Sequence record: PZ386979.1
DNA: 51,874 bases
Reading direction: 5' to 3' (one strand)
From: a phage
The notes under the pieces were generated by a model, which searched no databases, had not been told where the DNA came from, and saw only the letters and a list, made by a program, of their open reading frames with translations. Positions 29,317 through 46,679 of the stretch are shown here, one piece after another; within the stretch, counting starts at the first letter, position 1, and the number at the start of each line of letters is the position of its first letter. Made by a program: the position numbers and the translations under genes.

Positions 29317-29348
29317 CACGCCAAATGGCATTACTCAAAGGTTTTAGA

Positions 29349-31800: not shown

Positions 31801-31840
31801 CACTTTTTGTTAAAACAGGCGCGAAGGATTGCGCCATAAT
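31797..31840 (+). promoter_or_regulatory. conserved element plus -10 (dam promoter)
   Basis: ATAGCACTTTTTGTTAAAAC containing VRR-NUC stop TAG; spacer holds inverted repeat GGCGC...GCGCC; -10 CATAAT. Confidence 0.55.
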
Positions 31841-31874
31841 AACACCAGTTCAACAAGCAACAGGTAATTAAGAA

Positions 31875-32576
31875 ATGAGCAAAGAAACTGAAGTGACATT
31901 TGAACAAATAGAACGCGAAACATTCATTGGCAATGCTCTTGCTACTGGTGGTCATTACCAGGCTGTTAAACCAAATCAATATTTCAAAGTGACTGGCAAC
32001 CGCTATAACGGCAGCAATACGCCGGACATTGTGCGCGATTTGTGGTCTACTCCGTATGAGCTTGTCGCATGGATGGAAAGCGAATACGGTGATTATGACA
32101 TCGACGCGGCGGCGAGCAAAGAAAATGCCGTATGTGAAAAATTCTACAGCAAGGAAACAAATTGCTTAAAGCGTTGGTGGGGTAGTAATAAGCATATCTG
32201 GCTTAATCCACCGTACAGCAATATTACGCCTTTTGTTAAGAAGGCGATTGAGCAAATGGAACACAACAACCAGATCGACATACTGTTACCTTGCGACACA
32301 TCAACAGGATGGTTTTATGAAGCGCAACAGCGCGCAGCGGAAATCATCTGGATCACTGGAGAAGTTTACCAGGAGGACGGAACAGAATATTCCCGCACAG
32401 GACGCCTTGCGTTTACCTCGGCTCTTACAGGTAAACCAGTGCAGGGCAACAACAAAGGAAGCGTTATTTTCATCATGCGCGAACTTAAAGAAGGTGAGCA
32501 GCAGAAAACGCGATACGTTAAAATCAGCGACATTTGCCCTTCGGTGGCAGACCGTCGCGCACGGAAACGGAGCTAA
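31875..32576 (+). CDS. dam: DNA N6-adenine methyltransferase (phage Dam-like)
   Basis: 233 aa; catalytic NPPY motif (HIWLNPPYS). Confidence 0.8.
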   Translation: MSKETEVTFEQIERETFIGNALATGGHYQAVKPNQYFKVTGNRYNGSNTPDIVRDLWSTPYELVAWMESEYGDYDIDAAASKENAVCEKFYSKETNCLKRWWGSNKHIWLNPPYSNITPFVKKAIEQMEHNNQIDILLPCDTSTGWFYEAQQRAAEIIWITGEVYQEDGTEYSRTGRLAFTSALTGKPVQGNNKGSVIFIMRELKEGEQQKTRYVKISDICPSVADRRARKRS

Positions 32577-32580
32577 AACC

Positions 32581-32838
32581 ATGCAGAAAGAAAGAAGAGT
32601 TTTACTTAATGAAGATGGCGAATTTCTTTTGTATCGCGCTATGGTATGCGATGCACTTGATAAAAACCCTAACGTGAAAAAGATGATTGATTGCGATCCG
32701 TGGGAATTTTCAAGCGCATTAGATATGAGCTTTGAGGAGACAAAAAAACTCCCGCTTGAAAAATGGAACGAGCAAATCAGAAATGACATGCAAGAATTTG
32801 TCGATTCGTGGAATTTTCAGCACGGAATGATCCACTAA
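32581..32838 (+). CDS. hypothetical protein
   Basis: 85 aa; start ATG 32581 with GGAGC RBS after dam stop; stop abuts conserved element. Confidence 0.45.
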   Translation: MQKERRVLLNEDGEFLLYRAMVCDALDKNPNVKKMIDCDPWEFSSALDMSFEETKKLPLEKWNEQIRNDMQEFVDSWNFQHGMIH

Positions 32839-32881
32839 TAGCACTTTTTGTTAAAACGCCCGACCTTGTGTCGGGCATAAT
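32838..32881 (+). promoter_or_regulatory. conserved element plus -10
   Basis: Element abuts TAA stop; spacer inverted repeat GCCCGAC...GTCGGGC; -10 CATAAT. Confidence 0.55.
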
Positions 32882-32913
32882 TATTTCATCAAAACGAACA
32901 AGAGGAAAATAAA

Positions 32914-33093
32914 ATGGTTGTTTACGATCCACGCGCTTTTAAAATTGCTCAAGAAGTTTCACGCGAATCTGTTGCTGGCGGTTCGGTTAACGGCTATCAG
33001 TTTGATTGGTCGGCAGCAATGACCCTGCTTAAGGTTGCATATGGTCACGCGCCAATTGAAACAGCGGAGGAATATTATAAGCATGAAGGTTGA
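32914..33093 (+). CDS. hypothetical small protein
   Basis: 59 aa, not in ORF track (below 60 aa); RBS AGAGGAAAAT; downstream of conserved element and -10. Confidence 0.4.
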   Translation: MVVYDPRAFKIAQEVSRESVAGGSVNGYQFDWSAAMTLLKVAYGHAPIETAEEYYKHEG

Positions 33094-33325
33094 ACAAGGT
33101 AGGCAGGCCGTATGGGATCACGCAAAGGAATGCGGTATCGCAGAAGACATAGCCAGGATAGCGAAATATTTTGATATTGCTGACATAAGCATTATCAGCG
33201 GCGACAAAATGACATTTCTCAATGAACGACCGCGCAAGATGCATCGCGTACCAGCAATACCAACAAAGATTGATTTCAAAGAGGCTATGGCGAAAATTCG
33301 CGAGCCGCGCAAATACTACAAATGA
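33083..33325 (+). CDS. hypothetical protein
   Basis: 80 aa; start ATG 33083 behind GGAGGAA RBS, overlaps upstream ORF end. Confidence 0.45.
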   Translation: MKVEQGRQAVWDHAKECGIAEDIARIAKYFDIADISIISGDKMTFLNERPRKMHRVPAIPTKIDFKEAMAKIREPRKYYK

Positions 33326-33336
33326 GGATTATTATC

Positions 33337-33411
33337 ATGTGGCGTTTGTTACTTTTGCCCTTACCTGTTATGATGGCGATCTCTATTGTATATGTTGTCA
33401 TAATGAGATAA
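33337..33411 (+). CDS. hydrophobic micro-ORF (possible leader peptide)
   Basis: 24 codons MWRLLLLPLPVMMAISIVYVVIMR; GAGGA RBS; its stop overlaps the AAGGAG RBS of the next gene. Confidence 0.25.
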   Translation: MWRLLLLPLPVMMAISIVYVVIMR

Positions 33412-33423
33412 GGAGAATTTTTG

Positions 33424-34554
33424 ATGAAGCAAATCAAAATCACAGATGAACAATTTATCAATGAGCGCAAGCAGGGAAAGACATATAAGCAGATCGCTAG
33501 TGAGTATGGCATGAACGTTCGCAGCATTGAGCGACGCGCGGCACGATTAGCAAAGCAAGGTAAAGTTACAACCATCGGATCACCTGGTTTTGGTGTTACT
33601 GGAGAATCAAAGCTAATTGATAAAGATGGCAATGTGGTTATGACATGGATTAAGACAAGCAAAGACCGCGAACAGTTAGAAGCATTAATGCAGGCCGCTA
33701 TGGATGCATTTAGCGAAGAAGTTCCTCGACTTGATCCACAGCCAGAATCACAAAAGGATTATAGCGAGACGCTATCACTGTATCCGATCTTTGACATGCA
33801 CTTGGGCGCAATGGCGCATAAGCATGAATGCGGCGAGAATTGGGATACAGCAACAGCAGAGCGCGTAATGAATAATTTCATTGATTATTCCATCCAGTGC
33901 GCACCTGATAGTGAGAATGCTGTTTTGCTGATTGGCGGTGATATGCTTCACAGTGACGGACTGGAAGCGGTAACACCTGCAAGCGGTCACGTATTGGATC
34001 AAGATAGTCGATACGCAAAACTTGTTTATGTTGCCATCCGGTCAGTGCGTCGAGCAATTACAAAGCTGTTATCAAAACACAAAAACGTCGAGATTCAGAT
34101 CATTGAAGGCAACCACGACCAAAGCGGCATGATCTGGTTGCGCGCAGCAATGGCGGCAGCATATGAGAATGAGCCACGAGTGCATGTTGATGTGTCTCCG
34201 CGAGTAGTTCATCACACACAATATGGCAAAACGTTCCTGGCATACCATCACGGGCATACTATCCGCAAACCTGAAACATTGCTAATGATGTGCGCGGCAG
34301 ACTGGCGCGAAGACTTCGGAAATTCAAAAATGATGTATGCTCACGTAGGGCACTGGCATCATCAAACAGTAACTGAAACAAGCCTGGGCATTGTTGAAGT
34401 GCATAGCACTATGGCGGCAAAAGATGCATATGCTGCGCGCGGTGGATGGCGTTCTCGTCGCCGTGCGGCTGTTATTGTTTATGATAAAGAATACGGAGAA
34501 GTAGGGCGATTTATGCATTATCCAGAAATGGCCGATCGAACTTTTAATTATTAA
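33424..34554 (+). CDS. metallophosphoesterase (calcineurin-like) with N-terminal HTH domain
   Basis: Phosphoesterase motifs DMH, GGDMLH, GNHD, HHGH, GHWH; N-terminal GKTYKQIASEYGMNVRSIERR helix-turn-helix; AAGGAG RBS; terminator follows. Confidence 0.65.
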   Translation: MKQIKITDEQFINERKQGKTYKQIASEYGMNVRSIERRAARLAKQGKVTTIGSPGFGVTGESKLIDKDGNVVMTWIKTSKDREQLEALMQAAMDAFSEEVPRLDPQPESQKDYSETLSLYPIFDMHLGAMAHKHECGENWDTATAERVMNNFIDYSIQCAPDSENAVLLIGGDMLHSDGLEAVTPASGHVLDQDSRYAKLVYVAIRSVRRAITKLLSKHKNVEIQIIEGNHDQSGMIWLRAAMAAAYENEPRVHVDVSPRVVHHTQYGKTFLAYHHGHTIRKPETLLMMCAADWREDFGNSKMMYAHVGHWHHQTVTETSLGIVEVHSTMAAKDAYAARGGWRSRRRAAVIVYDKEYGEVGRFMHYPEMADRTFNY

Positions 34555-34582
34555 AATATCAATATAAATCATCAATTTAATT

Positions 34583-34613
34583 GGGCGTGGCATTTTGCTT
34601 CGCCCTTTTTTTA
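34583..34613 (+). terminator. terminator upstream of lysis cassette
   Basis: GGGCG-(13-nt loop)-CGCCC followed by TTTTTTTT. Confidence 0.55.
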
Positions 34614-34685
34614 TTCCTTTTTGTGCGTTCAATGGTTAGGATACAATCAATTAATTGTTGACTTTTATCTACAGGAGATCTAATC

Positions 34686-34901
34686 ATGAAAGATTTTTTA
34701 AACGCTGCAACTTCCGGCACTTGCGGCGCGTCAATCACTGGCGCGGTAACTGGTCAAACAACTATTGCAATAGCCAGCTTCGTTTTGATGGCTGCATTTG
34801 GTATGTGGGGAGCTTATCTTCGCTGGCGTGATAGTAAGGCGCTACGTGACGCGCTTGAATGCGGTGATATTAAGAAAGCTATTGAGACCAGAGGTAAATA
34901 A
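34686..34901 (+). CDS. holin (small, single TMD; pinholin-like)
   Basis: 71 aa; one hydrophobic helix ([21 protein letters not shown]) then charged C-terminus; AGGAG RBS; directly upstream of endolysin (TAATG overlap). Confidence 0.6.
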
Positions 34902-35389
34902 TGAGTATAAAACAAAGAGTGACCGCTGCGGCTTTTGGCGTTGCTCTTGCCCTTACTTCTCCGCTACTGGAGGAAATAGAAGGAGTAAAACATAAGCCGT
35001 ACAAAGATATTGCTGGGATATGGACGGTTTGCGCCGGAATAACTGGACCTGACGTAATACCAGGTAAAACGTACACACAGAGAGAGTGCGATGCGCTACT
35101 GGCAAAGCATATCAAGATCGCAAAGGATGAAGTTGATAAACGTGTGAAGGTTGAGATTCCTGATACAATGCGCGCGGCAATGTATTCATTCACATACAAT
35201 GCTGGCACTGGTGCTTTCAGAAATTCAACCATGCTTAAGCTGATTAATAAAGGACGTTACATGGAAGCGTGCGATCAGTTATGGCGATGGACAAAATACA
35301 CCAATCCAAAAACAGGAAAGAAAGAAACGTCTAAAGGACTGCGCAACCGCCGCGCTGTGGAATTTAAATATTGCATTAAGGATCTGTAA
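34901..35389 (+). CDS. endolysin (GH24 lysozyme-like, possible SAR type)
   Basis: 162 aa; weakly hydrophobic Gly/Ala-rich N-terminus ([17 protein letters not shown]) then [13 protein letters not shown]...[10 protein letters not shown] lysozyme-like catalytic region. Confidence 0.75.
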
Positions 35390-35391
35390 TT

Positions 35392-35790
35392 ATGAGAAAG
35401 CTATCAGCAATCGCGATCGCTGTTATTTTGTCTGGATGTTCAAGCGTTATGCCACTGACCGGATTAATCGGCAGTAAGCCGGAAATCACAGCACAGGCAG
35501 GAGCAGAGAACGTAAAACAGACCGTCGGCCTTACAGCAAAGCAGGACGCCAGCAGTAAGCAGGATACAACCATTAAAGAGTCGAAAGTTGACACGGTTGA
35601 TACTTCCAACAAAAAAGAGATCAAAACGTCAACCATTCAGGCTAACACCATCAAGGCCGATAAAATCCAGGTCGTGCAGGGGGAGCAAAGGAAGTGGTAC
35701 GATCCTATAATCTATTGCGCTGCAATTTTCAGTGGTCTTTTGACTATGCTTTACTTTTCCTACCGCAAAGATAACAAAAAGGAGGCTTAA
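35392..35790 (+). CDS. unimolecular spanin (T1 gp11-like)
   Basis: 132 aa; N-terminal lipobox LSGC and C-terminal TMD (IIYCAAIFSGLLTMLYF); last gene of lysis cassette. Confidence 0.7.
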   Translation: MRKLSAIAIAVILSGCSSVMPLTGLIGSKPEITAQAGAENVKQTVGLTAKQDASSKQDTTIKESKVDTVDTSNKKEIKTSTIQANTIKADKIQVVQGEQRKWYDPIIYCAAIFSGLLTMLYFSYRKDNKKEA

Positions 35791-35801
35791 CGCCTCCTTT
35801 G

Positions 35802-35993
35802 TTATTCGATACGCTTTACAGTAACCAACAAAACGCCGTCCTCATCACACAAATTATGCTCTGATATGTTAAACGCTCGCATGTCAGAATGAATGAGCGT
35901 TAACATTGCGTGCATGAAGTCGCCATGTGAGATTTGAGAAGTAGCGCAAAACTTAAGAATTTCATCTATCAGTTTACTTTCCATGATTTTCAT
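35802..35993 (-). CDS. hypothetical protein
   Basis: Track ORF 35802..36044 overlaps HNH 3' end; shortened to internal Met; start uncertain. Confidence 0.3.
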   Translation of the reverse strand: MKIMESKLIDEILKFCATSQISHGDFMHAMLTLIHSDMRAFNISEHNLCDEDGVLLVTVKRIE

Positions 35994-36447
35994 GATAACC
36001 AAGTTTAGCCTCTGCTTGTTCTCTTGCCATAATTGCATCATCAATGCTTGAAAATAATCCTAAATGAATACTCTTACCTTTATCATATATGGTTGCATGC
36101 CATTTTTTTTCTTTCTTCCTCCAGCACACTCCAACCCTACCAGATTTATTTCTTTTTAGTAGAGATACGTTTTTGCTGTTCTCTAATCTTGATGCAAGCC
36201 TTAAATTTTCAATCCTGTTATCCAACCTATTGTGCCATATATGATCTATCTCCATTCCTTCTGGTATTTTTCCATTGTGCATTTCCCATATTATCCTATG
36301 CGCCAAAAGCAATACACCATTATACCTTATTCTTACATAGCCATTTTTATCTACACATCCAGCAACGCTTCCTGGCTTTGCTTTTCCCCTTCTGTTTCTC
36401 CATCTCAATATTCCATTGTCATATATAAATATTTTATTCCAATCCAT
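35974..36447 (-). CDS. HNH homing endonuclease (second copy)
   Basis: 157 aa; paralog of 1570..2076 (LAHRIIWEMHNGKIPEGMEIDHI ... LGYHENHGK); gene body visibly more AT-rich than flanks; overlaps both neighbours. Confidence 0.8.
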   Translation of the reverse strand: MDWNKIFIYDNGILRWRNRRGKAKPGSVAGCVDKNGYVRIRYNGVLLLAHRIIWEMHNGKIPEGMEIDHIWHNRLDNRIENLRLASRLENSKNVSLLKRNKSGRVGVCWRKKEKKWHATIYDKGKSIHLGLFSSIDDAIMAREQAEAKLGYHENHGK

Positions 36448-36826
36448 ATCTTTTCCTTAGAGCTTCTATTTGTTGTCTATTAGCATTTGACGTAAACAAT
36501 TCTTCATCGCTCATTTCTCCGATCCTTAAAACATCCCTTACCCATTCGTTTTGCATACCTTCCAGGCTGTAAAGTTCAAACGAGAAGGGGCGATTTGCTG
36601 ATCCTTTCTTACACCAGAACTTTCCACCAACTCCATCAAGATAACCAGCGGTCATCATTCTTGAGCAAAATTCTTTTGAAACGGCAGTTGCAAACATCCT
36701 CGGCGTAAATCCTGCGGCCCTTGCGAGCCGCTCACATTCTCTATGCTGAAATATAAATTTCGCTATATGTTGACGTGTAAACCATTCGAATGACTCACAC
36801 CAGCGATACAGATCCAGAAGAAACAT
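36434..36826 (-). CDS. hypothetical protein
   Basis: 130 aa; start 4 nt after upstream stop (coupled); no recognised motif. Confidence 0.45.
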   Translation of the reverse strand: MFLLDLYRWCESFEWFTRQHIAKFIFQHRECERLARAAGFTPRMFATAVSKEFCSRMMTAGYLDGVGGKFWCKKGSANRPFSFELYSLEGMQNEWVRDVLRIGEMSDEELFTSNANRQQIEALRKRYGLE

Positions 36827-36828
36827 AA

Positions 36829-38412
36829 TTACCCCAGCAATGTTGGATTTACAAAAACAACGCCATTAATCACACAAATATAATTTCTTTCTTCAAGCAT
36901 CGGCAGCAGTTGCGTTTCCATGCGCTTCATTACGCCAGCCTGACCAACAAAAGGCTTAACTTTTCGCGCAGCCTCATATATGGCTCGCACATTCAAAATT
37001 CCCTTGTTAGCCTTACCGTGTCGAGTGATAATCTCGATTAGTTTACCCATTTCAGCATCATCACCAGCATAGCCAGAAGCGTTGGCGGCGCTAATGTATG
37101 TTTTGCTCAACTCGCTAAACATCAGTAGTGCTTCCTGAACGGTTTCAACCTCAATCTCTTTCGACTTTTGAGGGTATCCGCCAGGATTAAACCAATTGCG
37201 GATAGTGTGCAAAACCGAAGCAATTCTGATCACCTGCTTATCCATTTTGCCAAGCGCGCCGCGCAGCATTGTATGAGAATACTTTCCGCCATCGGCAAGG
37301 TGCGGTTCCATCTCCTGACGAGCCATGTTAAGCACTCGCATTGCTGATTTGCTGATCTTAAGCTGGATGTTTGATTCGCTCATTATGTTATGGATCAGCT
37401 TAAAATATTGGCTTTTCAGTTCTCCATCAACAGGCTCATAAGTCGAATCACCGTTATCATCAACAAACTTTCGACGACCTAAAAATGATTCCTCACGCAC
37501 AAGCAAATAACGCTCACTTACACCGATACCGCGTGATCCTGCGTCCATGATGGCATTGATTGTTTCATCCTGGGCAATTACCGCCATGCAGCCAAGAGCT
37601 TTAAAACTCATATTGTTGTCAGCGTTTGCACGAGCTATAGAAACATGACCATGATCCCATGCTTTTAGCACAAGTTCGCTGTTTGTTTTGCGTTCGCTAT
37701 TGGCATATGTCAGGCCTAAAAGGCTGTTAATACTCGTTGCCTCGTCTGAAATTACAGCAAAGTTACCCTGGCGATTGTTGATTCTTGCAAGTCCTTCAGG
37801 CGTGGTGTCTGAAACAGGGAAAACAATGTCACACATCTTTTCCAGCTTTTCTTCAAGATCTTCTTTCTCCTGGTATAGCGATTCCATATCAGCGCCAGAT
37901 CGCTCGCTTTTCATCTCTTTTGCAAGACCTGCCAACTTTGCCTGAATCTTTTTCCGTTCCTTCTTTCGCTGATCATTAATTCTTTCCACTTCAGCAACCA
38001 TAGGAGCAAGAGCCAGGCTGTTAACGGCAGATTTACCAGTTGAAGGAGGCTGACTTGTGACAACATAAAGGGCGGTTGGCTGATCCGTTCCGTGATACTC
38101 AACCGTGAAGCGTCCAAGCATTGCAGCAGACACGCAGCCGATAAAATGCATATAGGCCGATGATTCAGGGAATTGAACAGAGCGAGCAATGTTTCGCGCC
38201 AACTTACCAACAACATCAACATCATTGCCAAGAGAAATTACAGGGTAGCGATCGTTTCCGTTATTAACATCATTAACCTCACCCCAAAAGCTGGACGATT
38301 GACGGTATCCGTTAGCCTGAATGGACACGCGCACCGGAGACAATCCTTGTGCATCAGCTAATTCGATAATTTGTTTTGGTGTTAGTTTATTTGTTTCAAA
38401 CGAAAAATTCAT
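36829..38412 (-). CDS. P-loop ATPase, putative replication protein (DUF3987-like)
   Basis: Start at ATG 38412 behind AAGGAG RBS; Walker A-like QPPSTGKSA and Walker B-like VISDEATS; adjacent to replication genes. Confidence 0.5.
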   Translation of the reverse strand: MNFSFETNKLTPKQIIELADAQGLSPVRVSIQANGYRQSSSFWGEVNDVNNGNDRYPVISLGNDVDVVGKLARNIARSVQFPESSAYMHFIGCVSAAMLGRFTVEYHGTDQPTALYVVTSQPPSTGKSAVNSLALAPMVAEVERINDQRKKERKKIQAKLAGLAKEMKSERSGADMESLYQEKEDLEEKLEKMCDIVFPVSDTTPEGLARINNRQGNFAVISDEATSINSLLGLTYANSERKTNSELVLKAWDHGHVSIARANADNNMSFKALGCMAVIAQDETINAIMDAGSRGIGVSERYLLVREESFLGRRKFVDDNGDSTYEPVDGELKSQYFKLIHNIMSESNIQLKISKSAMRVLNMARQEMEPHLADGGKYSHTMLRGALGKMDKQVIRIASVLHTIRNWFNPGGYPQKSKEIEVETVQEALLMFSELSKTYISAANASGYAGDDAEMGKLIEIITRHGKANKGILNVRAIYEAARKVKPFVGQAGVMKRMETQLLPMLEERNYICVINGVVFVNPTLLG

Positions 38413-38439
38413 TGATGATAACTCCTTTTTGATGCGGCA

Positions 38440-38483
38440 ATAATACCGCACCAATGCTACCCGCATTTAACAAAAAATGCTAT
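38440..38483 (-). promoter_or_regulatory. conserved element plus -10 (upstream of DUF3987-like gene)
   Basis: Minus-sense ATAGCATTTTTTGTTAAA containing upstream stop TAG; 20-nt spacer; TATTAT; then AAGGAG RBS. Confidence 0.5.
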
Positions 38484-38701
38484 TTGATCCGCTCTATGCT
38501 AACTAAGATTTTTTCTGGTTCCTTTGCGCTATGGCAATGCGCGGTTACGGAATCAACAAAATCAAAATAAAGTGATTTGTGGTAAGAAAGACCAATCATC
38601 CATCCAACCATCGTTTTCTTTATTGGCCTGACTATATCGCCAGGCTTGAAGGTTTTTGTTGCTGAATAAGTCACCTTATAGCGATATTCAGTCTTGATCA
38701 C
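38480..38701 (-). CDS. hypothetical protein
   Basis: 73 aa; GTG start per ORF track; stop TAG lies inside a conserved element copy. Confidence 0.4.
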   Translation of the reverse strand: MIKTEYRYKVTYSATKTFKPGDIVRPIKKTMVGWMIGLSYHKSLYFDFVDSVTAHCHSAKEPEKILVSIERIK

Positions 38702-39084
38702 TTATACATAGCCTCAAACAAATGACAGCCACCAGCGGAAAATCCTACTTCTTCGCGGTATAGCGTCCAGCGGTCGCCAGCTTCATCAAAAACATAACCA
38801 GCAACAGCGCCAAGCGCGCGGCCTTGCTCAATCTGGTAACGCTTTCCTTCTTTGAAATGCTTTTTACACGGGATTTTGTGATCTACAAAGGTGCATTTAA
38901 TTGTTTTTGTCTTGATATGACGATAGTCAGACTCAACAGCGTTTTGCCACTTGCTACCCTTTGTAATGCTCTTTACCTGGAATTGTTCCAACTCGATCAC
39001 ATCATCGCTACCAGAAATTTTTTCGTATACGGTTTTATAGCGCCCGTCCATCAAAACGTTGGTTTTATTGCAGATAACTTTCAT
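38698..39084 (-). CDS. hypothetical protein
   Basis: 128 aa; AAAGGAG RBS; downstream of conserved element and -10 (39116..39160). Confidence 0.5.
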   Translation of the reverse strand: MKVICNKTNVLMDGRYKTVYEKISGSDDVIELEQFQVKSITKGSKWQNAVESDYRHIKTKTIKCTFVDHKIPCKKHFKEGKRYQIEQGRALGAVAGYVFDEAGDRWTLYREEVGFSAGGCHLFEAMYK

Positions 39085-39115
39085 CTTTTATTTCTCCTTT
39101 CGTTTCGGTGAAGTG

Positions 39116-39159
39116 ATTATGCCAGGCTTTTACACCTGGCTTTTAACAAAAAGTGCTAT
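39116..39159 (-). promoter_or_regulatory. conserved element plus -10
   Basis: Minus-sense ATAGCACTTTTTGTTAAAA with stop TAG inside; spacer inverted repeat GCCAGG...CCTGGC; CATAAT. Confidence 0.55.
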
Positions 39160-39866: not shown

Positions 39867-39874
39867 TCATCACC

Positions 39875-40099
39875 TCAAAACGGAAAGCATCGAGGGCAGT
39901 TAGGATCAAAATTGCAGCAGCAATCATTGACAATCATCGTTGGATCTGCAAATGCAGCGCCGCATTCTTGGTCCATATCCATTTCACCCAACGCATCATC
40001 AAGCGTCCTGATTTTATATGCGACCTCAAGCGCGGCCTCTTTATTCAGTCCGGCATCTTCTGCTTTTTGCAGTCGCTCAAAAAAACCGTCTTGACTCAT
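39875..40099 (-). CDS. hypothetical protein (Cys-rich C-terminus)
   Basis: 74 aa; acidic; ends DCCCNFDPNCPRCFPF. Confidence 0.45.
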   Translation of the reverse strand: MSQDGFFERLQKAEDAGLNKEAALEVAYKIRTLDDALGEMDMDQECGAAFADPTMIVNDCCCNFDPNCPRCFPF

Positions 40100-40209
40100 T
40101 TAATAAACTCCTTAACAACAGCAAGAATAATCACAAGCCCAGCAGTAAAAACAAGCAAACCGACAAGGCCAATCATAACACAAAATAAAATATCAAGCGC
40201 CTTAATCAT
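40096..40209 (-). CDS. small hydrophobic membrane peptide (putative)
   Basis: 37 aa MIKALDILFCVMIGLVGLLVFTAGLVIILAVVKEFIK; 4-nt overlap with downstream gene start; weak RBS. Confidence 0.3.
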   Translation of the reverse strand: MIKALDILFCVMIGLVGLLVFTAGLVIILAVVKEFIK

Positions 40210-40223
40210 TTATTCACCATTGA

Positions 40224-40248
40224 TAAAATGGGAGGCGAAAACCTCCCA
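40224..40248 (-). terminator. terminator-like hairpin in leftward early operon
   Basis: Minus sense TGGGAGG-ttttcg-CCTCCCA then ATTTTAT. Confidence 0.45.
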
Positions 40249-40256
40249 TTGGTTAA

Positions 40257-40484
40257 TCATACAGCTTTCCAGCTTTCAATAAACATGCTGTTTTCTTCCA
40301 GAAGTTTAATCAATTCTTCGCGCGTATATTTGCGGATTTTACTACCAGGATGCGAGCCAACAACAAACACACCTTTGCCGCTTGTGATTGTTAACTGGCT
40401 GATTCCACAAGATTTATCCATTTTTACGGCGACGCGGTGATGCGCATCAATAGTGTGCATGATGTTAGTGACTTTAGCTTTCAT
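40257..40484 (-). CDS. hypothetical protein
   Basis: Start at ATG 40484 (MKAKVTNIM) behind GAGGA RBS, downstream of conserved element and -10 (40515..40557); terminator 40224..40248 follows. Confidence 0.45.
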   Translation of the reverse strand: MKAKVTNIMHTIDAHHRVAVKMDKSCGISQLTITSGKGVFVVGSHPGSKIRKYTREELIKLLEENSMFIESWKAV

Positions 40485-40514
40485 TATGCAATCCTCATTA
40501 TATTTGGTGTGGTA

Positions 40515-40557
40515 ACTATACCAAGTTTGCGAAATATTGTTTAACAATTCGTGCTAT
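40515..40557 (-). promoter_or_regulatory. conserved element (variant ATAGCACGAATTGTTAAAC) plus -10 TATAGT
   Basis: Follows TGA of tiny ORF; 18-nt spacer; TATAGT; GAGGA RBS. Confidence 0.5.
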
Positions 40558-40658
40558 CAGTTGAAATAGCTATGGCGCTTTGCTCGCTTTCCATCTCCGC
40601 CATAATGATCATTTGCAACAGCTACCATCCAGGCATTATGGAATATTATTAGCTTCAT
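40557..40658 (-). CDS. tiny ORF (33 aa)
   Basis: MKLIIFHNAWMVAVANDHYGGDGKRAKRHSYFN; its TGA stop abuts a conserved element copy, as seen for larger genes. Confidence 0.25.
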   Translation of the reverse strand: MKLIIFHNAWMVAVANDHYGGDGKRAKRHSYFN

Positions 40659-40940
40659 CTAATTAATACCCACCACGTTAAAATTTACAGCTTTTGTTGC
40701 GCTAAACACATACGCTTCAACAGCGCCGCCAAATACACGAATTTTACCCTGGCCGTACTGCGCATTCATATTTCGCCAAACCGTTCTATTAGAGCAGAAT
40801 GCGCTACCAGTCTTAATAAGCGTATCCATCTCTTTTCTTAGATCGCGATAGTCCAGCCAGAATCTAAAGGCACGCTGTTTAATTCTCGCCGCCTTGATTT
40901 TTTCTCTTGCGCTATTGAAATCATTCTTTTCGTATGCCAT
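40659..40940 (-). CDS. hypothetical protein
   Basis: 93 aa; basic; in leftward early operon. Confidence 0.45.
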   Translation of the reverse strand: MAYEKNDFNSAREKIKAARIKQRAFRFWLDYRDLRKEMDTLIKTGSAFCSNRTVWRNMNAQYGQGKIRVFGGAVEAYVFSATKAVNFNVVGIN

Positions 40941-41137
40941 TAAATGATCTCCATGTATGTTTCAAAGCCATTTAACTTGAACAGGCCGTTTTCACATTTG
41001 CGCACGTTCCAAGTTAGCCCTGAGTGGTACGCCTCCATATCATCAAGGTCAATGGTGATTTCAGCACCTTTCTTAAACAAACCTTTTTCGTGAGACTTGT
41101 CGCGCTTAACAACTTTAACATCAACCTGATTTTCCAT
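40940..41137 (-). CDS. hypothetical protein
   Basis: 65 aa; GAGGA RBS; downstream of conserved element and -10 (41169..41212). Confidence 0.45.
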   Translation of the reverse strand: MENQVDVKVVKRDKSHEKGLFKKGAEITIDLDDMEAYHSGLTWNVRKCENGLFKLNGFETYMEII

Positions 41138-41168
41138 CTTTAAATCCTCGCTTGTTGTCGATGCGTGT

Positions 41169-41212
41169 AATATACCAATCAGAGGCGCATCGGTTTTAAC
41201 AAAAAGTGCTAT
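41169..41212 (-). promoter_or_regulatory. conserved element plus -10
   Basis: Minus-sense ATAGCACTTTTTGTTAAAAC abutting TAA stop; 18-nt spacer; TATATT. Confidence 0.5.
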
Positions 41213-41479
41213 TTAGTCCATGAATTCGATTTCGCGCTCGCCAGTTAACGGATCTACAAGCCAGAATCCGAGCGGCTCACCGTAAACACCGCCATAGAAT
41301 CCAAGCGCCGACAGATCTTCACCTTTAACAAATACCAGATCACCGCTACGGCTTACGTGAGACACGTTAACGATAACCGGAAATGTGCGGTTTTTAAATG
41401 CAGGCCGCAGGGCGTAACACCCGTTATTTAGCAAACGTGCTTTGCGCTTAACTGGAATAGGTGCATTGATTCGCGCCAT
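41213..41479 (-). CDS. hypothetical protein
   Basis: 88 aa; stop TAA abuts conserved element. Confidence 0.45.
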   Translation of the reverse strand: MARINAPIPVKRKARLLNNGCYALRPAFKNRTFPVIVNVSHVSRSGDLVFVKGEDLSALGFYGGVYGEPLGFWLVDPLTGEREIEFMD

Positions 41480-41492
41480 ATTTATTTCTCCT

Positions 41493-41738
41493 TCATTGTT
41501 TATCGCGTTTAACGGCCCTCAGAACATCACAGGACTCGTTAATAAATTTTGCCATGCGCTTATCATCACCAACAGGGATTAGCGCATTACACTCGCGTTT
41601 TCTACTGAAAACCGTTACTTTATGAAACGATGCGAACGGCATCGACGGAAACTCGACTGTTTGCGTCAAGATCCGCAATCCCATCTTTTTGGCCCTTACC
41701 TGGGCCTCAGCGAGTTCAAAATCCACTTCATTAATCAT
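41493..41738 (-). CDS. hypothetical protein
   Basis: 81 aa; leftward early operon. Confidence 0.45.
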   Translation of the reverse strand: MINEVDFELAEAQVRAKKMGLRILTQTVEFPSMPFASFHKVTVFSRKRECNALIPVGDDKRMAKFINESCDVLRAVKRDKQ

Positions 41739-42007
41739 TTCTTGATCTCCTCAGCAATAAACTTCAGGACTTTGCGCAAAAACACTTCATTATTGATGGT
41801 CGCTGGCAATTCCTCTTTCACTTCTTGCGGCAGGTAAACGTTGCCATGCCAGGTTAAGCAATCGTAGTTGATACGATAAGAGCAAAGCCACTCGCAATCG
41901 TTATCCGCTTCCCAAATGCAGAGTTGCAGAACATCACCTAAATCCTCAACAGTCAGATCCAGACCGTGACGCTTTGCAAAGTTGAAAGTGGTTTTGCTGA
42001 TGTTCAT
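41735..42007 (-). CDS. hypothetical protein (first leftward early gene)
   Basis: 90 aa; CAGGAG RBS; downstream of conserved element and -10 (42042..42085). Confidence 0.5.
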   Translation of the reverse strand: MNISKTTFNFAKRHGLDLTVEDLGDVLQLCIWEADNDCEWLCSYRINYDCLTWHGNVYLPQEVKEELPATINNEVFLRKVLKFIAEEIKK

Positions 42008-42041
42008 TGCTATCTCCTGAGCGGTTCGTTTCGATGTGTGT

Positions 42042-42085
42042 AATGTACCCGATCAGGCGGATTCAGTTTTAACAAAAAGTGCTAT
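42042..42085 (-). promoter_or_regulatory. conserved element plus -10 (leftward early promoter)
   Basis: Minus-sense ATAGCACTTTTTGTTAAAAC; 18-nt spacer; TACATT; CAGGAG RBS; first gene of leftward early block. Confidence 0.5.
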
Positions 42086-42381
42086 TTGCTGACTGGTCAT
42101 TATTCCTTCTATTCCATTAATCAGGAATAACAGGAATAATTCATTCGCGATCACCTGGATTGTGAGACTTTGAGTTTGATCAATTTTAATCAGTTGATTA
42201 ACTTTTTGTGTGGAGGGGATGGAGAAACGCGGCCCTCTTGCATCCTTTCCGGCAATCCTGGCGCGCGCATCTGTTATTTCTGTTCCCCATGTTATCTCAA
42301 ATAAGCCTCCGCACTTTTAGATAACAGAATCGGCGTTCATCAACAAAAAGAACAAAATAAAATTTATATATATACCAATAA

Positions 42382-42396
42382 AATCAATAAGTTAGT
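42382..42396 (+). repeat. AATCAATAAGTTAGT 15-mer (copy 2)
   Basis: Identical to 21041..21055. Confidence 0.6.
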
Positions 42397-42626
42397 TATA
42401 TATGTATTTATATTTGTTATTTACTGTTGAGCTTGTTCCATGGGTATATGGTGGGTGTTGATGATTCCTTCATTTAACATTTGTACTTTTTATGCGGTTA
42501 TATATATAGATTTTGCGGCATTATCGAGACAACCAGTGAACGAGATTGAACGAGCTTTAAAATCAATCACTTGCGCGCAATTTTGTTATCGCGTCAAAAA
42601 AAGATGTTATTAGAACGAAAAATCAG

Positions 42627-42655
42627 TTGACTACCTGGCTGTGAGTATTGATAAT
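42627..42655 (+). promoter_or_regulatory. sigma70-like early promoter (TTGACT-17-GATAAT) for rightward early operon
   Basis: -35 TTGACT 42627..42632, -10 GATAAT 42650..42655; upstream TTAGAACGAAAAA block shared with promoter at 21298. Confidence 0.6.
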
Positions 42656-42687
42656 GCACGCAGACAAAACGAAAAGGGAGACAGCAC

Positions 42688-42987
42688 ATGACAAAAATGC
42701 TTGCAATAAACCGAAAACTTGAAGTGAAAGAGATGTCACAAGATGATATTGATGATTTGGCGCGCGGCATGACAACAGGTTACATGCGGAGAATTGTCAA
42801 TCACTTGATTAACTCTGAACGAAATAAGGCCGTATACATCAGCATAAATCACGCTGGAGGGAATGCTGCATCAATGCGACAGATGATTAACAACGTGGCA
42901 AAAGAGTTAAATGTTGATGTTAAGACGTTTGTTGTTGATGGATTCCTGGGCCTGGTAATACTTGAAGTTAACGAAGCGTTTGCATAA
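42688..42987 (+). CDS. hypothetical protein (first rightward early gene)
   Basis: 99 aa; AAGGGAG RBS; 30 nt after sigma70-like promoter TTGACT-17-GATAAT. Confidence 0.5.
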   Translation: MTKMLAINRKLEVKEMSQDDIDDLARGMTTGYMRRIVNHLINSERNKAVYISINHAGGNAASMRQMINNVAKELNVDVKTFVVDGFLGLVILEVNEAFA

Positions 42988-42998
42988 GGAGTAAGAGA

Positions 42999-43460
42999 AT
43001 GGAGCAAGAATTTATTAACCGCGCGGCATTTTGCGACACGTTGCGAGATATTGGAAGGGCTATCGGTAGCGGTGAGCGAGAAACCGTATTTATGCCTGAA
43101 ATCTACCTGAGAAGTCGAGTTGAGGGGGGCGAAGCAATTACGGCATCGTACATGCGCCAGGTTGTCAACCGCGTACCTGAAGTAAAGCAAAAAGGCGTGA
43201 TCAGCATTAAGCGAAAGGTGACTGATGAGGGTGATGGCTTTGTGTTTACGCTCACTGAAGCCAAAAGCAAGCCTCGCGTGCTGACTGGAGACGATATAGC
43301 GAAACTTGAAATCAAGTGGCGAGCAAAGTTTATTGCTCAACTTCTGAAAACTCAGCCGAGAATCAGCGACCTGGAAGGCGAGCGCCTGGAGGGTGCGGCA
43401 ATCGCACTTGAGCGAATGAATGAAATGCTTAGCGAGATGGTAAAGATGGGGGATGAATAA
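42999..43460 (+). CDS. hypothetical protein
   Basis: 153 aa; AAGGAG RBS. Confidence 0.5.
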   Translation: MEQEFINRAAFCDTLRDIGRAIGSGERETVFMPEIYLRSRVEGGEAITASYMRQVVNRVPEVKQKGVISIKRKVTDEGDGFVFTLTEAKSKPRVLTGDDIAKLEIKWRAKFIAQLLKTQPRISDLEGERLEGAAIALERMNEMLSEMVKMGDE

Positions 43461-43726
43461 TGAATAAGGCATTAATTGGAGTTTTGATTGCAATCGCTAC
43501 CCTGACCGGATGCGAAAAGGCATCTGAATCAACAGTTGTCGTAGGAGTGGAGTCAGATTTTAAAGTCGGTCGCCTGTTTACTGTTGATGGATGCACTGCG
43601 TACCGATTCTATGATAACGGTCACGCGATCTATTACACCAACTGCAAGGGCACGACTAGCTGGGAAGTGTCGAAAAGCAACGGCAAGGTAACGACAACAG
43701 AACATATGACAGTGGAGACAAAATAG
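43460..43726 (+). CDS. early lipoprotein (putative)
   Basis: 88 aa; signal peptide with lipobox LTGC; stop TAG inside conserved element. Confidence 0.5.
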   Translation: MNKALIGVLIAIATLTGCEKASESTVVVGVESDFKVGRLFTVDGCTAYRFYDNGHAIYYTNCKGTTSWEVSKSNGKVTTTEHMTVETK

Positions 43727-43766
43727 CACTTTTTGTTAAAACTCAAAAACGATAACCAGGCATAAT
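43723..43766 (+). promoter_or_regulatory. conserved element plus -10
   Basis: ATAGCACTTTTTGTTAAAAC containing lipoprotein stop TAG; 18-19 nt spacer; CATAAT. Confidence 0.55.
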
Positions 43767-43821
43767 AAATCACATAGGGCGGCACGGCGTCGCCCAGTTA
43801 AACCAATCAGGAGAAAGCACC

Positions 43822-44715
43822 ATGTTAAAACTTGCTGACATTAAATTCCCGATCACCTTCGAATCTCGTGGTGTTGGTCATTACGTTTTTACAGATGAGA
43901 AAACATGCCATAACGTTTGGTTGCACAGCGATAAGTTAAGCCCATCAACAATGGAGATTCAGCACTTTATTGATGCGCATAATCAGCACTACAACTCAAT
44001 CCGGGACTACGGCTACGCAATGCCAGGCTACACATGCTTGCACTACAAGCCATATAAGGGCCAGGTGTTACCAGTGCGCTCACCGGAACGCGCAGAGATT
44101 CCAATGGTCCATATGAAAACATGCGACTACAAAAAGCTGTGGTGCTTAAGTGTGGACAATATCAAGTATCCGATCACGTTCCACACGACTGGCAAGTTAA
44201 CGATTCGCTACACATCGCGCGACAATGGCGTTTATAGCGATGGTACGAAATCAGAGTTGAAAGTTGATTTCTTTGTCAATGGTCACAACAAATTCAATCC
44301 GCACAACGAAGAGGATAAAGTGTATTACGTGGAAGACATTACAAAACACTTGTTTGGAGAAACTCCATTCGGCGGCGGGAAGACGGCAATTCAGAAAATC
44401 ATTGGCGAGGAGATCCATAAAGCGGCTGTCGAAATGAAAGCGCCTGGAGGCTGGCGTATTGACAAGAGCGCCTTTGCCTATCAAGAAATCGTAACGCAGG
44501 GCGCGATTGAAGATATGCCAGTTACAGCCACGCTAAAAGGAGTCCGGCTTGATGACGGCAGTTGGTATGAATTAACAGCTACACCAAAGACGATCGAAAT
44601 TCATGATGATGTTGTTATCCTTCTGCTTCACTACGGCGGCACTAAAAACCGGACTGTTGCAGGTGAGATCCGCATCAAGCGCGGAGCGATGGTTAAGTGG
44701 AAGGTGAAGATTTGA
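43822..44715 (+). CDS. hypothetical protein with internal duplication
   Basis: 297 aa; two related segments (LADIKFPITFESRG ... / VDNIKYPITFHTTG ...); CAGGAG RBS. Confidence 0.5.
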   Translation: MLKLADIKFPITFESRGVGHYVFTDEKTCHNVWLHSDKLSPSTMEIQHFIDAHNQHYNSIRDYGYAMPGYTCLHYKPYKGQVLPVRSPERAEIPMVHMKTCDYKKLWCLSVDNIKYPITFHTTGKLTIRYTSRDNGVYSDGTKSELKVDFFVNGHNKFNPHNEEDKVYYVEDITKHLFGETPFGGGKTAIQKIIGEEIHKAAVEMKAPGGWRIDKSAFAYQEIVTQGAIEDMPVTATLKGVRLDDGSWYELTATPKTIEIHDDVVILLLHYGGTKNRTVAGEIRIKRGAMVKWKVKI

Positions 44716-44791
44716 GTTTGCTCACTGCGGCGCACGTCGCCGCATGGATAGGATTGTTTGCCTACATGTTTAGCTTTTATTGAGGTGAGAG

Positions 44792-44944
44792 ATGGCTACA
44801 TGGATTTTGCTGATTCTTATGATTGATGGCGGCGTTGACCATATCGAAATGAATAGCCAGCAATCTTGCATTGAGGCACGAGAGCAGATCAAGAACAACA
44901 ACAGGTTTTATGCGTACACTCACACGCTATGTATTAAGAAATAG
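44792..44944 (+). CDS. small membrane peptide (putative)
   Basis: 50 aa MATWILLILMIDGG...; GAGGTGAGAG RBS; stop TAG is part of a conserved element copy. Confidence 0.35.
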   Translation: MATWILLILMIDGGVDHIEMNSQQSCIEAREQIKNNNRFYAYTHTLCIKK

Positions 44945-44983
44945 CACTTTTTGTTAAAACTCAAATGTGGGGCCAGGTATAAT
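44941..44983 (+). promoter_or_regulatory. conserved element plus -10
   Basis: Element contains TAG of 44792..44944; 17-nt spacer; TATAAT inside GGCC...GGCC inverted repeat. Confidence 0.55.
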
Positions 44984-45013
44984 GGCCTCACTTTCAACGA
45001 AGGAGATAAAACG

Positions 45014-45232
45014 ATGTACATTAAAAAGAAGATGAAATGCGTTTCCGTTAACTATGCTTGCTCTGGCATGTTCAAGCCTGGCGAAATCTATACGGCGCAA
45101 AAACTGAAATCATCAACCGGATCCTTTTACGTGAGCAATAGTAAGGGGCATCGCATGTTCCTGAACGGCGGCGAAGGCACTAAGGTTATGGCACACGCTA
45201 TGGTAATGGCTGAATTTGAGGAGGTGAAATAA
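45014..45232 (+). CDS. hypothetical protein (tandem paralog 1)
   Basis: 72 aa; start ATG 45014 behind AAGGAG RBS; paralog of 45232..45477 (F.LNG..GT...A...V.AEFE). Confidence 0.45.
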   Translation: MYIKKKMKCVSVNYACSGMFKPGEIYTAQKLKSSTGSFYVSNSKGHRMFLNGGEGTKVMAHAMVMAEFEEVK

Positions 45233-45477
45233 TGATCATTGAAAACAACTTTCTTTGCGTTAAGAGCAATCGACCATTCTTCACGCCTGGCAAGGTGTAC
45301 CAGGGCAAGAAGGACACAAGAGATGGTCACTCTTATCATGTTCACTGCAACAACGGATACAAGTTTTACCTTAACGGTAATAATGGAACTGAGATTGTTG
45401 CGTTTGAAAACGTAATTGCCGAGTTCGAGCAGATTACAGACGCGGAATTTGAGGAAGTGAAAGATGAAAACAAATAA
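45232..45477 (+). CDS. hypothetical protein (tandem paralog 2)
   Basis: 81 aa; shares PG..Y...K...G.S.Y/H... FYLNGNNGTEIVAFENVIAEFE with upstream gene. Confidence 0.45.
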   Translation: MIIENNFLCVKSNRPFFTPGKVYQGKKDTRDGHSYHVHCNNGYKFYLNGNNGTEIVAFENVIAEFEQITDAEFEEVKDENK

Positions 45478-45685
45478 GCGCGTCAAGCACAGGTTTACTG
45501 ATAACCACGGCGACGCGATTGATGTATACAAGTTCGGCGATCGCGTGTTTATTGATGGCACGTTTGAAGGTGGTCGTAGGCCGGATTTTAGGTCGATACT
45601 TACCGTTGACCAAGTGCGCAAGCTGGCAGATAAGTTAAATGATCTGGCAGATGAAATAGAATACAAGCAAATCCATTTTAATTGA
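45464..45685 (+). CDS. hypothetical protein
   Basis: 73 aa; overlaps upstream gene end. Confidence 0.4.
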   Translation: MKTNKRVKHRFTDNHGDAIDVYKFGDRVFIDGTFEGGRRPDFRSILTVDQVRKLADKLNDLADEIEYKQIHFN

Positions 45686-45696
45686 TAGGTTTGATA

Positions 45697-46410
45697 ATGA
45701 AAAAATACACTTTCGAACTGTGGGGCAAGAAGTACGAATTAATCACCAGCAAGCCGATTGTTATCGTTGACCTGGACGGCACGCTATCGGACGGATCGCA
45801 TCGTTTGCATTTGCTGCCAACTGAAAACTTGCACCTTACGGAATCGTGGCGCGAGTTTAACAGGGCCGCCTCCGGAGATTCACCGATTAAAAGCACTATC
45901 GCGGTTATTAACGGTTTATGGGTGTCGGGATTTGCCATCGTCATCCTGACCGGACGCAGCGACGAGGTTCGCTATGAAACCTGCAAATGGTTGAATGAGA
46001 ACGGCGTGAAGTTTGACGAAATCATCATGCGCCGCCAGGAGGACAACCGAAAGGATACTGTTATTAAAGAAGAAGCCTTGCGCGCTATTGGCCTGGACAA
46101 CATTGTTTGCGCCTTTGACGATTCGCCGAGCGTGGTTAAGCACTTCCGCAGCTTGGGGATCACAACCTATCAGGTCACGGAATACGACAAGCCACACGCT
46201 CACATACAATCTCACGGCGTGGAATCAATAAAGATCACGAAGCGCGCCCGATTCGTCGGCAGCAAAGACAGCCTGGTCAATGCCAGCTTTATCAAAGGCA
46301 AGGTTTATGATGTTCATAGCCATGATAAAAACCGATTCTTTTTGTGGGATGAAAAAGGTTTTGGCTGGTGCTTTGAACACGACGACGGCGATTTTGTTAA
46401 CGCGGAGTAA
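45697..46410 (+). CDS. HAD-superfamily phosphatase (polynucleotide 3'-phosphatase/nucleotidase-like)
   Basis: 237 aa; HAD motif I DLDGTLSDG near N-terminus. Confidence 0.55.
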   Translation: MKKYTFELWGKKYELITSKPIVIVDLDGTLSDGSHRLHLLPTENLHLTESWREFNRAASGDSPIKSTIAVINGLWVSGFAIVILTGRSDEVRYETCKWLNENGVKFDEIIMRRQEDNRKDTVIKEEALRAIGLDNIVCAFDDSPSVVKHFRSLGITTYQVTEYDKPHAHIQSHGVESIKITKRARFVGSKDSLVNASFIKGKVYDVHSHDKNRFFLWDEKGFGWCFEHDDGDFVNAE

Positions 46411-46416
46411 TTATAA

Positions 46417-46608
46417 ATGGCTGACTTTATGCATCAAATGATTGTTGTATTTAAGGGCAGTGAAGATGAAGAGGTTCGCGAATGCTTCACCATTGAGAAA
46501 TCATACAGCGCATCTTTAACCAGTTTTGGCAACATATCTATGATTGATGATAATGGCGATCCGTGGATTTTTGAAGATGATACGGATTGCTTTGAGATTA
46601 AAGAATAG
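46417..46608 (+). CDS. hypothetical small acidic protein
   Basis: 63 aa; highly acidic; stop TAG inside conserved element. Confidence 0.45.
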   Translation: MADFMHQMIVVFKGSEDEEVRECFTIEKSYSASLTSFGNISMIDDNGDPWIFEDDTDCFEIKE

Positions 46609-46648
46609 CACTTTTTGCAAAAACAGATTATCGGGCTTGCGGTATAGT
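46605..46648 (+). promoter_or_regulatory. conserved element (ATAGCACTTTTTGCAAAAAC) plus -10 TATAGT
   Basis: Contains stop TAG; spacer/-10 within inverted repeat GGGCTT...AAGCCC. Confidence 0.5.
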
Positions 46649-46679
46649 AAGCCCATCAACAACAAACGAGGATTAAATC

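Follow-up and report, generated by a model that had tools for sequence, protein, structure and literature searches.

Composite intergenic cassettes that combine a promoter with a stem-loop are known from the T4-type phages RB49/phi1, PST and nt-1, where they were termed promoter-early stem-loops (PeSLs; Arbiol et al. 2010, PMC2839356; Comeau et al. 2014, PMC4122927). The stem-loops of PeSLs lie mostly in the gap from the -35 to the -10 or over the -10 and contain G.T pairs, and one of them lowered downstream lacZ about as much as the very strong terminator rrnB T1 (PMC2839356). PeSL cassettes also mediate modular shuffling (PMC2839356, PMC4122927). In bacteria, terminators commonly overlap the next promoter, and the coupled promoter raises the efficiency of weak ones (Fletcher et al., bioRxiv 10.64898/2026.08.19.745784). 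In the phages TLS, T1 and Rtp, a direct repeat of 21 nucleotides (nt; aaATAGCACnnnTTGnTAAAA), noted also in Rogue1, is oriented along with transcription, ~76 nt ahead of start codons, and what it does was left undecided between a stoperator, an enhancer site and a UP element (PMC11447400). Here we compare these systems with the repeated promoter units, and the hairpins nested in them, of a phage DNA of 51,874 nt (sequence record PZ386979.1; this whole stretch is called the window below).

A repeated promoter unit in a T1-like coliphage

Over a 7-kb stretch the window shared 98.9% identity with Escherichia phage vB_EcoD_Fulano1, and the same stretch shared 94-96% identity with the phages damhaus, haarsle, pSf-1 and G29-2. 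These relatives belong to Drexlerviridae, Tempevirinae, Hanrivervirus, and the window thus represents essentially the entire genome of a T1-like coliphage. A conserved AT-rich element of 20 nt (GCACTTTTTGTTAAAAC) matched the window 14 times at <=3 mismatches, compared with 0.37 matches expected. One extra degenerate copy of the element ('A-type') was located at 22417, which brings the promoter units in the window to 15. A scan of IMG/VR with the exact 20-mer returned 120 loci on T1-like contigs of ~50 kb, the genomes of TLS and Rtp among them, and consensus positions were taken from ~310 distinct related copies aligned on the element.

The unit consists of ATAGCACTTTTTGTTAAAAC followed by 18 nt, with a G at -14, a TATAAT-like -10 hexamer and CA at -1/+1. 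The hexamer occupies positions 19-24 after the element (A-11 in 90% and T-7 in 89% of the aligned copies), the G at -14 is present in 88%, and the CA at -1/+1 in 78% and 87%, respectively. The spacer between element and -10, given as 17-20 nt in a first-pass annotation of the window, is in fact 18 nt across the related copies (n = 329) and rarely 17 nt (n = 6) or 19 nt (n = 11). Relative to the predicted +1, the element extends from -50 to -31. Because its TTGTTA lies 22 base pairs (bp) from the -10 and its TTAAAA 19 bp (18 bp in the 44941 copy), the unit is, as judged from these distances, without a canonical -35; a promoter scan accepts only the 44941 copy. The stop codon of the upstream open reading frame is either the TAG inside ATAGCAC or a TAA just ahead of it. 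The unit ends in a conserved 5' untranslated region (UTR) that includes a Shine-Dalgarno sequence; in the listed copies, GGAG or GAGG and then ATG occur 25-45 nt past the -10. Freedom to vary is confined to ~16 nt in the spacer and ~6 nt in the discriminator, exactly where the stems sit.

We also note that the transcript start from +1 to +12 is conserved beyond what a Shine-Dalgarno sequence needs (ATCGAAACGAA, with the subtypes ATTGAAGCGAAAC and ACACCAAAC), an example in the window being 42035-42024 (CATCGAAACGAA). The elements fall into the subgroups T, A and G as in TLS (TTT, AAA and GAA in the middle); those of the window are mostly T-type with one A-type (22417-22435), and the G-type (GCACGAATTG) was seen in related contigs.

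The window element matches the TLS direct repeat in consensus, orientation and distance to the ATG, and the published, unexplained repeats of T1-like phages are therefore apparently the upstream half of a complete promoter. [quoted passage not shown] Literature searches with the literal element sequence returned unrelated papers only, and ATAGCAC returned only the TLS paper.

When compared with PeSLs, the T1-like units are likewise repeated intergenic cassettes that have the upstream stop codon in an AT-rich start, a sigma-70-type -10 and a Shine-Dalgarno plus ATG end, with a variable GC-rich stem-loop that includes G.T pairs and mostly either follows the upstream promoter element, ahead of the -10, or spans the -10. 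They also flank small genes and are shuffled between contexts. They differ from PeSLs in that they occur in siphoviruses (Drexlerviridae), in that the 20-nt element at -50 to -31 and the G at -14 replace a consensus -35 at 16-18 bp, and in that their commonest geometry pairs spacer with discriminator. Promoter and terminator activity of the T1-like units is predicted. By analogy, the T1-like units belong to the known class of composite promoter/stem-loop cassettes, for which the T1-like siphoviruses are a new host group; our literature search returned no paper that links PeSLs with T1-like phages.

Hairpins in the variable positions of the unit

When folded as RNA, nine of the 15 window copies reached energies from -9.9 to -16.5 kcal/mol; compared with dinucleotide shuffles, their z-scores ranged from -2.1 to -5.0. 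Folds of <= -11.4 kcal/mol were obtained for 2.1% of all 36-nt windows of the genome vs. 8/15 unit copies (approximate binomial P ~2e-10). All six inverted repeats singled out by the first-pass annotation were recovered, at the same positions or beside them. It had placed five of them in the spacer, which holds for 31818-31835, 32858-32876 and 39140-39121; those at 46633 and 44971 enclose the -10, as do the sixth, at 22445, and three further copies that it did not list (38454-38429, 41192-41159 and 49289-49312). We divide the hairpins into class A, with both arms in the spacer and ending at the first base of the -10, and class B, with the 5' arm in the spacer, the 3' arm in the discriminator up to +2 and the -10 in the loop. 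The nine units are as follows.

31797..31847 (+): unit upstream of the Dam methylase gene; element 31797-31816, -10 CATAAT 31835-31840, predicted +1 ~31847; class A hairpin with arms GGCGC(G)/(T)GCGCC at 31818-31824 / 31829-31835; RNA fold -11.4 kcal/mol, z -2.8
32838..32888 (+): element 32838-32857, -10 CATAAT 32876-32881, predicted +1 ~32888; class A hairpin GCCCGAC/GTCGGGC at 32858-32864 / 32870-32876, 7 bp with loop CTTGT; -13.8 kcal/mol, z -4.6
39109..39159 (-): element 39159-39140, -10 CATAAT 39121-39116, predicted +1 ~39109; class A hairpin GCCAGG(T)/(G)CCTGGC at 39140-39134 / 39127-39121 (-); -13.9 kcal/mol, z -3.8
22417..22468 (+): degenerate 'A-group' copy; element ACAGCACAAATAGCTAAAC 22417-22435; class B hairpin with an 8-bp stem ATGCGGTG/CACCGCAT at 22445-22452 / 22461-22468 and, as first annotated, TATAAT in its loop (the -10, 22454-22459); -13.2 kcal/mol, z -5.0
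38429..38483 (-): element 38483-38464, -10 TATTAT 38445-38440, partly inside the stem; class B hairpin with arms 38454-38444 / 38439-38429; -16.5 kcal/mol, z -3.7
41159..41212 (-): element 41212-41193, -10 TATATT 41174-41169 in the loop; long-loop class B hairpin, CGATGCG 41192-41186 / CGCATCG 41165-41159; -9.9 kcal/mol, z -2.1, the weakest of the nine
44941..44991 (+): unit with a 17-nt spacer; element 44941-44960, -10 TATAAT 44978-44983; class B hairpin GGCC/GGCC at 44971-44974 / 44984-44987, extended by RNAfold to 9 pairs (44967-44975 / 44983-44991); -16.4 kcal/mol, z -3.9, UUUCAA after the stem
46605..46655 (+): element 46605-46624, -10 TATAGT 46643-46648; class B hairpin with arms 46633-46640 / 46647-46654, core GGGCTT 46633-46638 / AAGCCC 46649-46654; -14.9 kcal/mol, z -4.5; relatives have GGGGTT/AACCCC at the equivalent site
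49263..49313 (+): unit of the 'ATTGAAG' subtype; element 49263-49282, -10 TAAAGT 49301-49306; class B hairpin with arms 49289-49298 / 49303-49312, core GAGGGC/GTCCTC with a G.U pair; -14.2 kcal/mol, z -4.3

A terminator scan flagged 32858-32876 as terminator-like (tail ATAATTATTT), and relatives have GCCAGGC/GTCTGGC and GCCCGGC/GTCGGGC in place of this stem. In the GenBank record of phage G29-2, a hairpin identical to 39140-39121 is annotated as an ARNold terminator. At gathering thresholds, Rfam gave no match anywhere in the window.

The hairpins are also a property of the related phages. By minimum free energy structure, ~360 distinct related copies were sorted into 103 of class A, 174 of class B, 56 unstructured and 27 other, which makes class B, with its -10 in the loop, the majority class. 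Among 39 related-phage copies whose spacers are dissimilar (differing at >=9/18 positions), 38% contain a perfect stem of >=6 bp. Column shuffling among copies, which keeps position-specific composition, gave 5.4 +/- 3.6%, and none of 300 shuffles exceeded 18%. Chance was weighed as an origin of the hairpins and is an improbable one. Complementarity scored position by position over all copies was modest (z <=4.4, best register i+j=37); as the stems occur in several registers, best-stem and per-family tests were used instead. Single-linkage families over-merged unrelated copies, and orthologue sets were anchored on neighbouring genes instead.

Pairs were counted in three alignments, one of paralogous copies and two of orthologous promoters. 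Among the paralogues, which are of the 'ATTGAAG' subtype and include the window unit 49263, 89.6% of cells were paired vs. 33-53% in slid controls, with double changes at 4/8 pairs and a score of 0.41 vs. 0.14 when shuffled (0/500). For the promoter that precedes the Dam gene, with the Dam protein as anchor and sequences ranging from this phage to T1, 92.2% of cells were paired vs. 29-42% when slid; two GC<->CG swaps were each carried by five sequences, and every single change was G.U-compatible. For the 22445 hairpin, anchored on an Erf-like gene and including TLS-type phages with another element subtype, 89.8% were paired, with double changes at 5/8 pairs (18 cells) and a score of 0.58 vs. 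0.21 shuffled (0/500). Compensatory changes, for which the first-pass annotation had suggested searching related spacers, are thus present in all three alignments, and pairing is retained in the homologous spacers. As judged from these alignments, it is the pairing that is kept, by compensatory mutation, and not the sequence of the stem.

Folding strand, upstream genes and possible roles

Single interruptions within stems were G.T in 35 cases and A.C in 7, compared with ~5 and 4.5 in shuffles. When non-redundant copies were folded in both senses, the promoter-sense RNA was more stable than the antisense RNA in 35/41 copies of class A and 60/77 of class B. The sense strand is G-rich, and for this reason even control windows in the coding sense show a 62:38 preference for it; the bias of the units (95/118 copies) exceeds this baseline (approximate P = 1.6e-5). 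Four-base loops are GNRA in 20 of ~57 cases, and UUCG is present too. Our results point to a folded single strand of sense polarity, which would be sense RNA or, less likely, non-template DNA.

In class A the predicted +1 lies downstream of the stem, and in class B it falls within the 3' arm. A transcript from the unit's own promoter therefore cannot fold the hairpin, which can form only in RNA reading through from upstream. In the window, a hairpin was found in 9/10 copies with a co-directional gene upstream vs. 0/5 without (Fisher P = 0.002). Of the five copies without such a gene, two are block-initial promoters, two are inverted and one belongs to an isolated minus-strand gene. The same association holds for related non-redundant copies, with hairpins in 63/93 vs. 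3/17 (approximate P = 2e-4).

We tentatively infer, at chances a little short of even, that the hairpins are a sense RNA 3' module of the upstream cistron, combining attenuation of read-through with protection of the 3' end. RNA arriving from the upstream gene would fold the hairpin that is nested in the promoter of the next gene. The hairpin might then attenuate or terminate read-through, inefficiently when alone and perhaps aided by an RNA polymerase at the overlapping promoter, and could block 3' exonucleases on the upstream message. Each gene would thereby depend for its expression mainly on its own promoter. The stems occupy the sole free positions of the unit, that is, the spacer alone (class A) or spacer plus discriminator around the -10 (class B). 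The first-pass annotation had considered a terminator for the upstream gene. The covariation, sense bias and upstream-gene link favour the part of that proposal in which a structure acts on the upstream transcript, and the lack of a U-tract speaks against a canonical terminator.

Nonetheless, this interpretation needs to be taken with caution, as several observations weigh against it. No T enrichment follows the class A stems (1.95 at positions 25-32 vs. 2.24 in hairpin-less copies), and the sequence after class B stems is AUCGAAAC. The phage has canonical T-run terminators elsewhere (e.g., 10026-10050), and the promoter hairpins are therefore probably not full terminators; acting alone, they would be weak terminators at most. 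The 43723 copy has an upstream gene yet no spacer hairpin. Part of the sense-strand bias is base composition (62% in controls), and the P values given above are approximate since related copies lack phylogenetic independence. In addition, no 5'- or 3'-end map of any T1-like phage was found in the literature, and promoters, transcription start sites and 3' ends are predicted.

With regard to described terminators, the hairpins share with canonical intrinsic ones a GC-rich stem of 5-9 bp, a short loop and a location ~20 nt past the stop codon, and ARNold accepts at least one of them. They differ in that 7/9 window hairpins are without a U-tract, a U-rich tail being present only at 32858 (AUAAUUAUUU) and 44967 (UUUCAA). 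An ordinary intrinsic terminator was considered as a separate candidate and dropped, given that T content after the stems is not raised. The T1-like units are like bacterial promoter-coupled terminators in that a weak hairpin of the upstream unit overlaps the promoter of the next tandem gene and shortens the intergenic region, and in their location between tandem co-directional genes. The bacterial motif has a T-tract between stem and -10 and its stem over the -35, whereas T1-like stems end at -13 or enclose the -10. Across the family, without T enrichment, the order of T-tract and then -10 was not found as a general feature; a minority resembles it (e.g., ccgcttcggcggGTTTTG-TATTAT), and a few subfamilies have GTTTTG before the -10.

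A purely post-transcriptional version is a close rival, although we consider it the less likely of the two. In it the hairpin would serve RNA stability or processing only, as a shield against 3' exonucleases or as a cap after an RNase E cut in the AU-rich element, and RNA polymerase would not be stopped. The single-stranded AU-rich element (AUAGCACUUUUUGUUAAAAC) directly 5' of the stem would be a typical RNase E context. The sense bias, covariation and upstream-gene link fit this version equally, and the missing U-tract enrichment suits a stabiliser better than a terminator. Against it, some family members have a true T-run after the stem (ccgcttcggcggGTTTTGTATTAT; also the second unit of phage KP15, described below), which suggests termination as part of the selected function, and a PeSL stem-loop strongly cut downstream expression (PMC2839356). 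It is improbable that the hairpins act on the promoter as DNA, either by extrusion of a non-template hairpin that presents a single-stranded -10 to sigma-70 or through a GC-rich spacer and discriminator that tune promoter strength. The position of the class B -10 in the loop, with GC-rich arms abutting it, would suit such an effect, as would the favoured strand, which is the non-template DNA strand. G.T mismatches and GAAA loops are stable in DNA too. However, class A (103 of ~360 copies) lies wholly upstream of the -10 and does not expose it, loop size ranges over 4-16 nt, and extrusion is not favoured by stems as short as 5-9 bp when their loops are long. Hairpin-less copies also retain the full promoter consensus, so the hairpin is unnecessary for promoter recognition. 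The virion RNA polymerase promoters of coliphage N4, whose signal includes a small DNA hairpin, are to our knowledge the only well-known promoter element presented by a stem-loop. N4 hairpins have a conserved sequence and 3-nt loops and need the N4 polymerase and SSB, unlike the T1-like stems, which vary, have loops of 4-16 nt and go with a sigma-70-like -10; the likeness is a resemblance only. A special form of the DNA-level effect, which we regard as very doubtful, is a supercoil relay, in which upstream transcription would generate negative supercoils, extrude the stem-loop, expose the -10 and switch on the -35-less promoter. It is compatible with the favoured strand being the non-template one, with the -10 in the loop in the majority of copies and with the tracking of upstream co-directional genes, a link that a relay could also yield. 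If true, it would make a chain of supercoil-coupled promoters along the phage genome.

There is also only a slim chance that the structures work on antisense transcripts, the class A hairpin being read on the opposite strand, where GUUUUAACAAAAAGUGC follows, and stopping antisense RNA polymerase from convergent blocks. The element does give an antisense-strand T-run at every copy, and the terminator scan lists 31835-31818 (-) as terminator-like with the tail TGTTTTAACA; on the other hand, the antisense fold is the less stable one in 95/118 non-redundant copies, the class B stem is 4-9 nt away from the antisense T-run, and the link to an upstream co-directional gene is not predicted by such a model. 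That the hairpins are hot spots or guides of recombination for the shuffling of gene cassettes appears very unlikely. Identical units stand between unrelated genes, chimeric units combine a spacer and a discriminator from different units, homology breaks at the element start in KP15-like phages, and the crossover of an RB49 PeSL mini-circle was mapped to the loop (PMC2839356). The hairpin is nevertheless the least conserved part of the unit and offers no homology, its compensatory evolution and G.U asymmetry suggest that a folded single strand is under selection, and the apparent recombinants have broken stems, which looks like a cost of shuffling and not its mechanism. Of the help with recombination that the first-pass annotation had suggested, the shuffling of whole units (between unrelated genes and in KP15) stands; a role of the hairpin does not, since it is variable and cannot supply homology. 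Its other suggestion, operator sites, here for a dimeric regulatory protein, is the least probable of all. Palindromes over the core promoter do occupy the classic operator position, but the nine window stems all differ in sequence, arm length, spacing and position, homologous copies keep pairing and not sequence, and G.U-compatible substitutions would be senseless in a double-stranded DNA site.

If the hairpins are indeed a 3' module of the upstream cistron, the variable gap of one promoter would carry structure that belongs to the gene before it. The same space-saving design in T4-type phages, in bacteria and in an unrelated siphovirus family suggests that it is a general solution for compact genomes. 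The units could also be regarded as ready-made insulated expression cassettes, and T1-like phages, which are small, easily engineered and frequent in phage-therapy collections, would be a handy system for promoter/terminator interference. For annotation, overlapping "terminator" and "promoter" calls are to be expected at these units.

Cassette exchange and window copies without a hairpin

An identical unit, hairpin included, can be found between unrelated upstream and downstream genes. In the window, the majority of copies are located at 38-50 kb, where small hypothetical genes surround them. Among the IMG/VR units, recombinant-looking ones were also observed, in which the spacer cggatcgggataacctgg is joined either to tatccc... 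or to aacccc... and one stem is broken; one spacer with two different discriminator/UTR/gene segments implies a crossover within the -10 hexamer. As far as the sequences tell, cassette shuffling at the units is real and is carried by their conserved flanks, and the hairpin is not needed for it.

Two T1-type units were also observed in a T4-like myovirus, Klebsiella phage KP15 (Slopekvirus, GU295964, ~10021-10438), where they are annotated as 'middle promoters' overlapping ARNold terminators. The first combines the exact 20-mer with a class B hairpin. In the second, the spacer measures 29 nt instead of 18 nt (+11 bp) and contains a canonical terminator; such a spacer, longer by one helical turn, was found in none of the T1-like loci examined. 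Between KP15 and Drexlerviridae only the 60-70-nt unit matches, and the neighbouring genes do not. The pattern suggests that the module may have moved between phage families and may be recognised by host rather than phage-specific factors.

In six window copies (42066-, 43726+, 29276+, 20908-, 10089- and 6328-) no significant hairpin was found, and their folds were indistinguishable from shuffles.

42035..42085 (-): first promoter of a leftward gene block, with no co-directional gene upstream; -4.7 kcal/mol, z 0.0
43723..43795 (+): unit without a spacer hairpin; 0 kcal/mol over spacer and -10
29273..29322 (+): variant unit, ATAGCATTTTTTGTTAAACG, which starts the rightward helicase block from a divergent region; -3.5 kcal/mol, z 0.0
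20878..20927 (-): variant unit upstream of a minus-strand superinfection-exclusion-like gene; -2.8 kcal/mol, z 0.0
10058..10108 (-): inverted unit within the plus-strand structural module; element 10108-10089, -10 TAGCAT 10070-10065; -5.1 kcal/mol, z -0.3
6298..6347 (-): inverted degenerate unit whose -10 (TTATGC) is poor, flanked by two structural genes of the plus strand; -6.1 kcal/mol, z -1.0

The 6298 unit may be a decaying copy. The 43723 unit has a GGGCG/CGCCC hairpin (43777-43781 / 43791-43795) downstream of the predicted +1, a structure that would fall in the 5' UTR of the promoter's own transcript. The 10058 unit is directed leftward, so that it meets the canonical terminator CAAGGGGCGTTGCGCCCCTTTTTTT (10026-10050) from behind; this terminator follows a gene ending at 10022. 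The unit could give rise to a very short antisense RNA. Inverted orthologues of this unit are present in other T1-like contigs.

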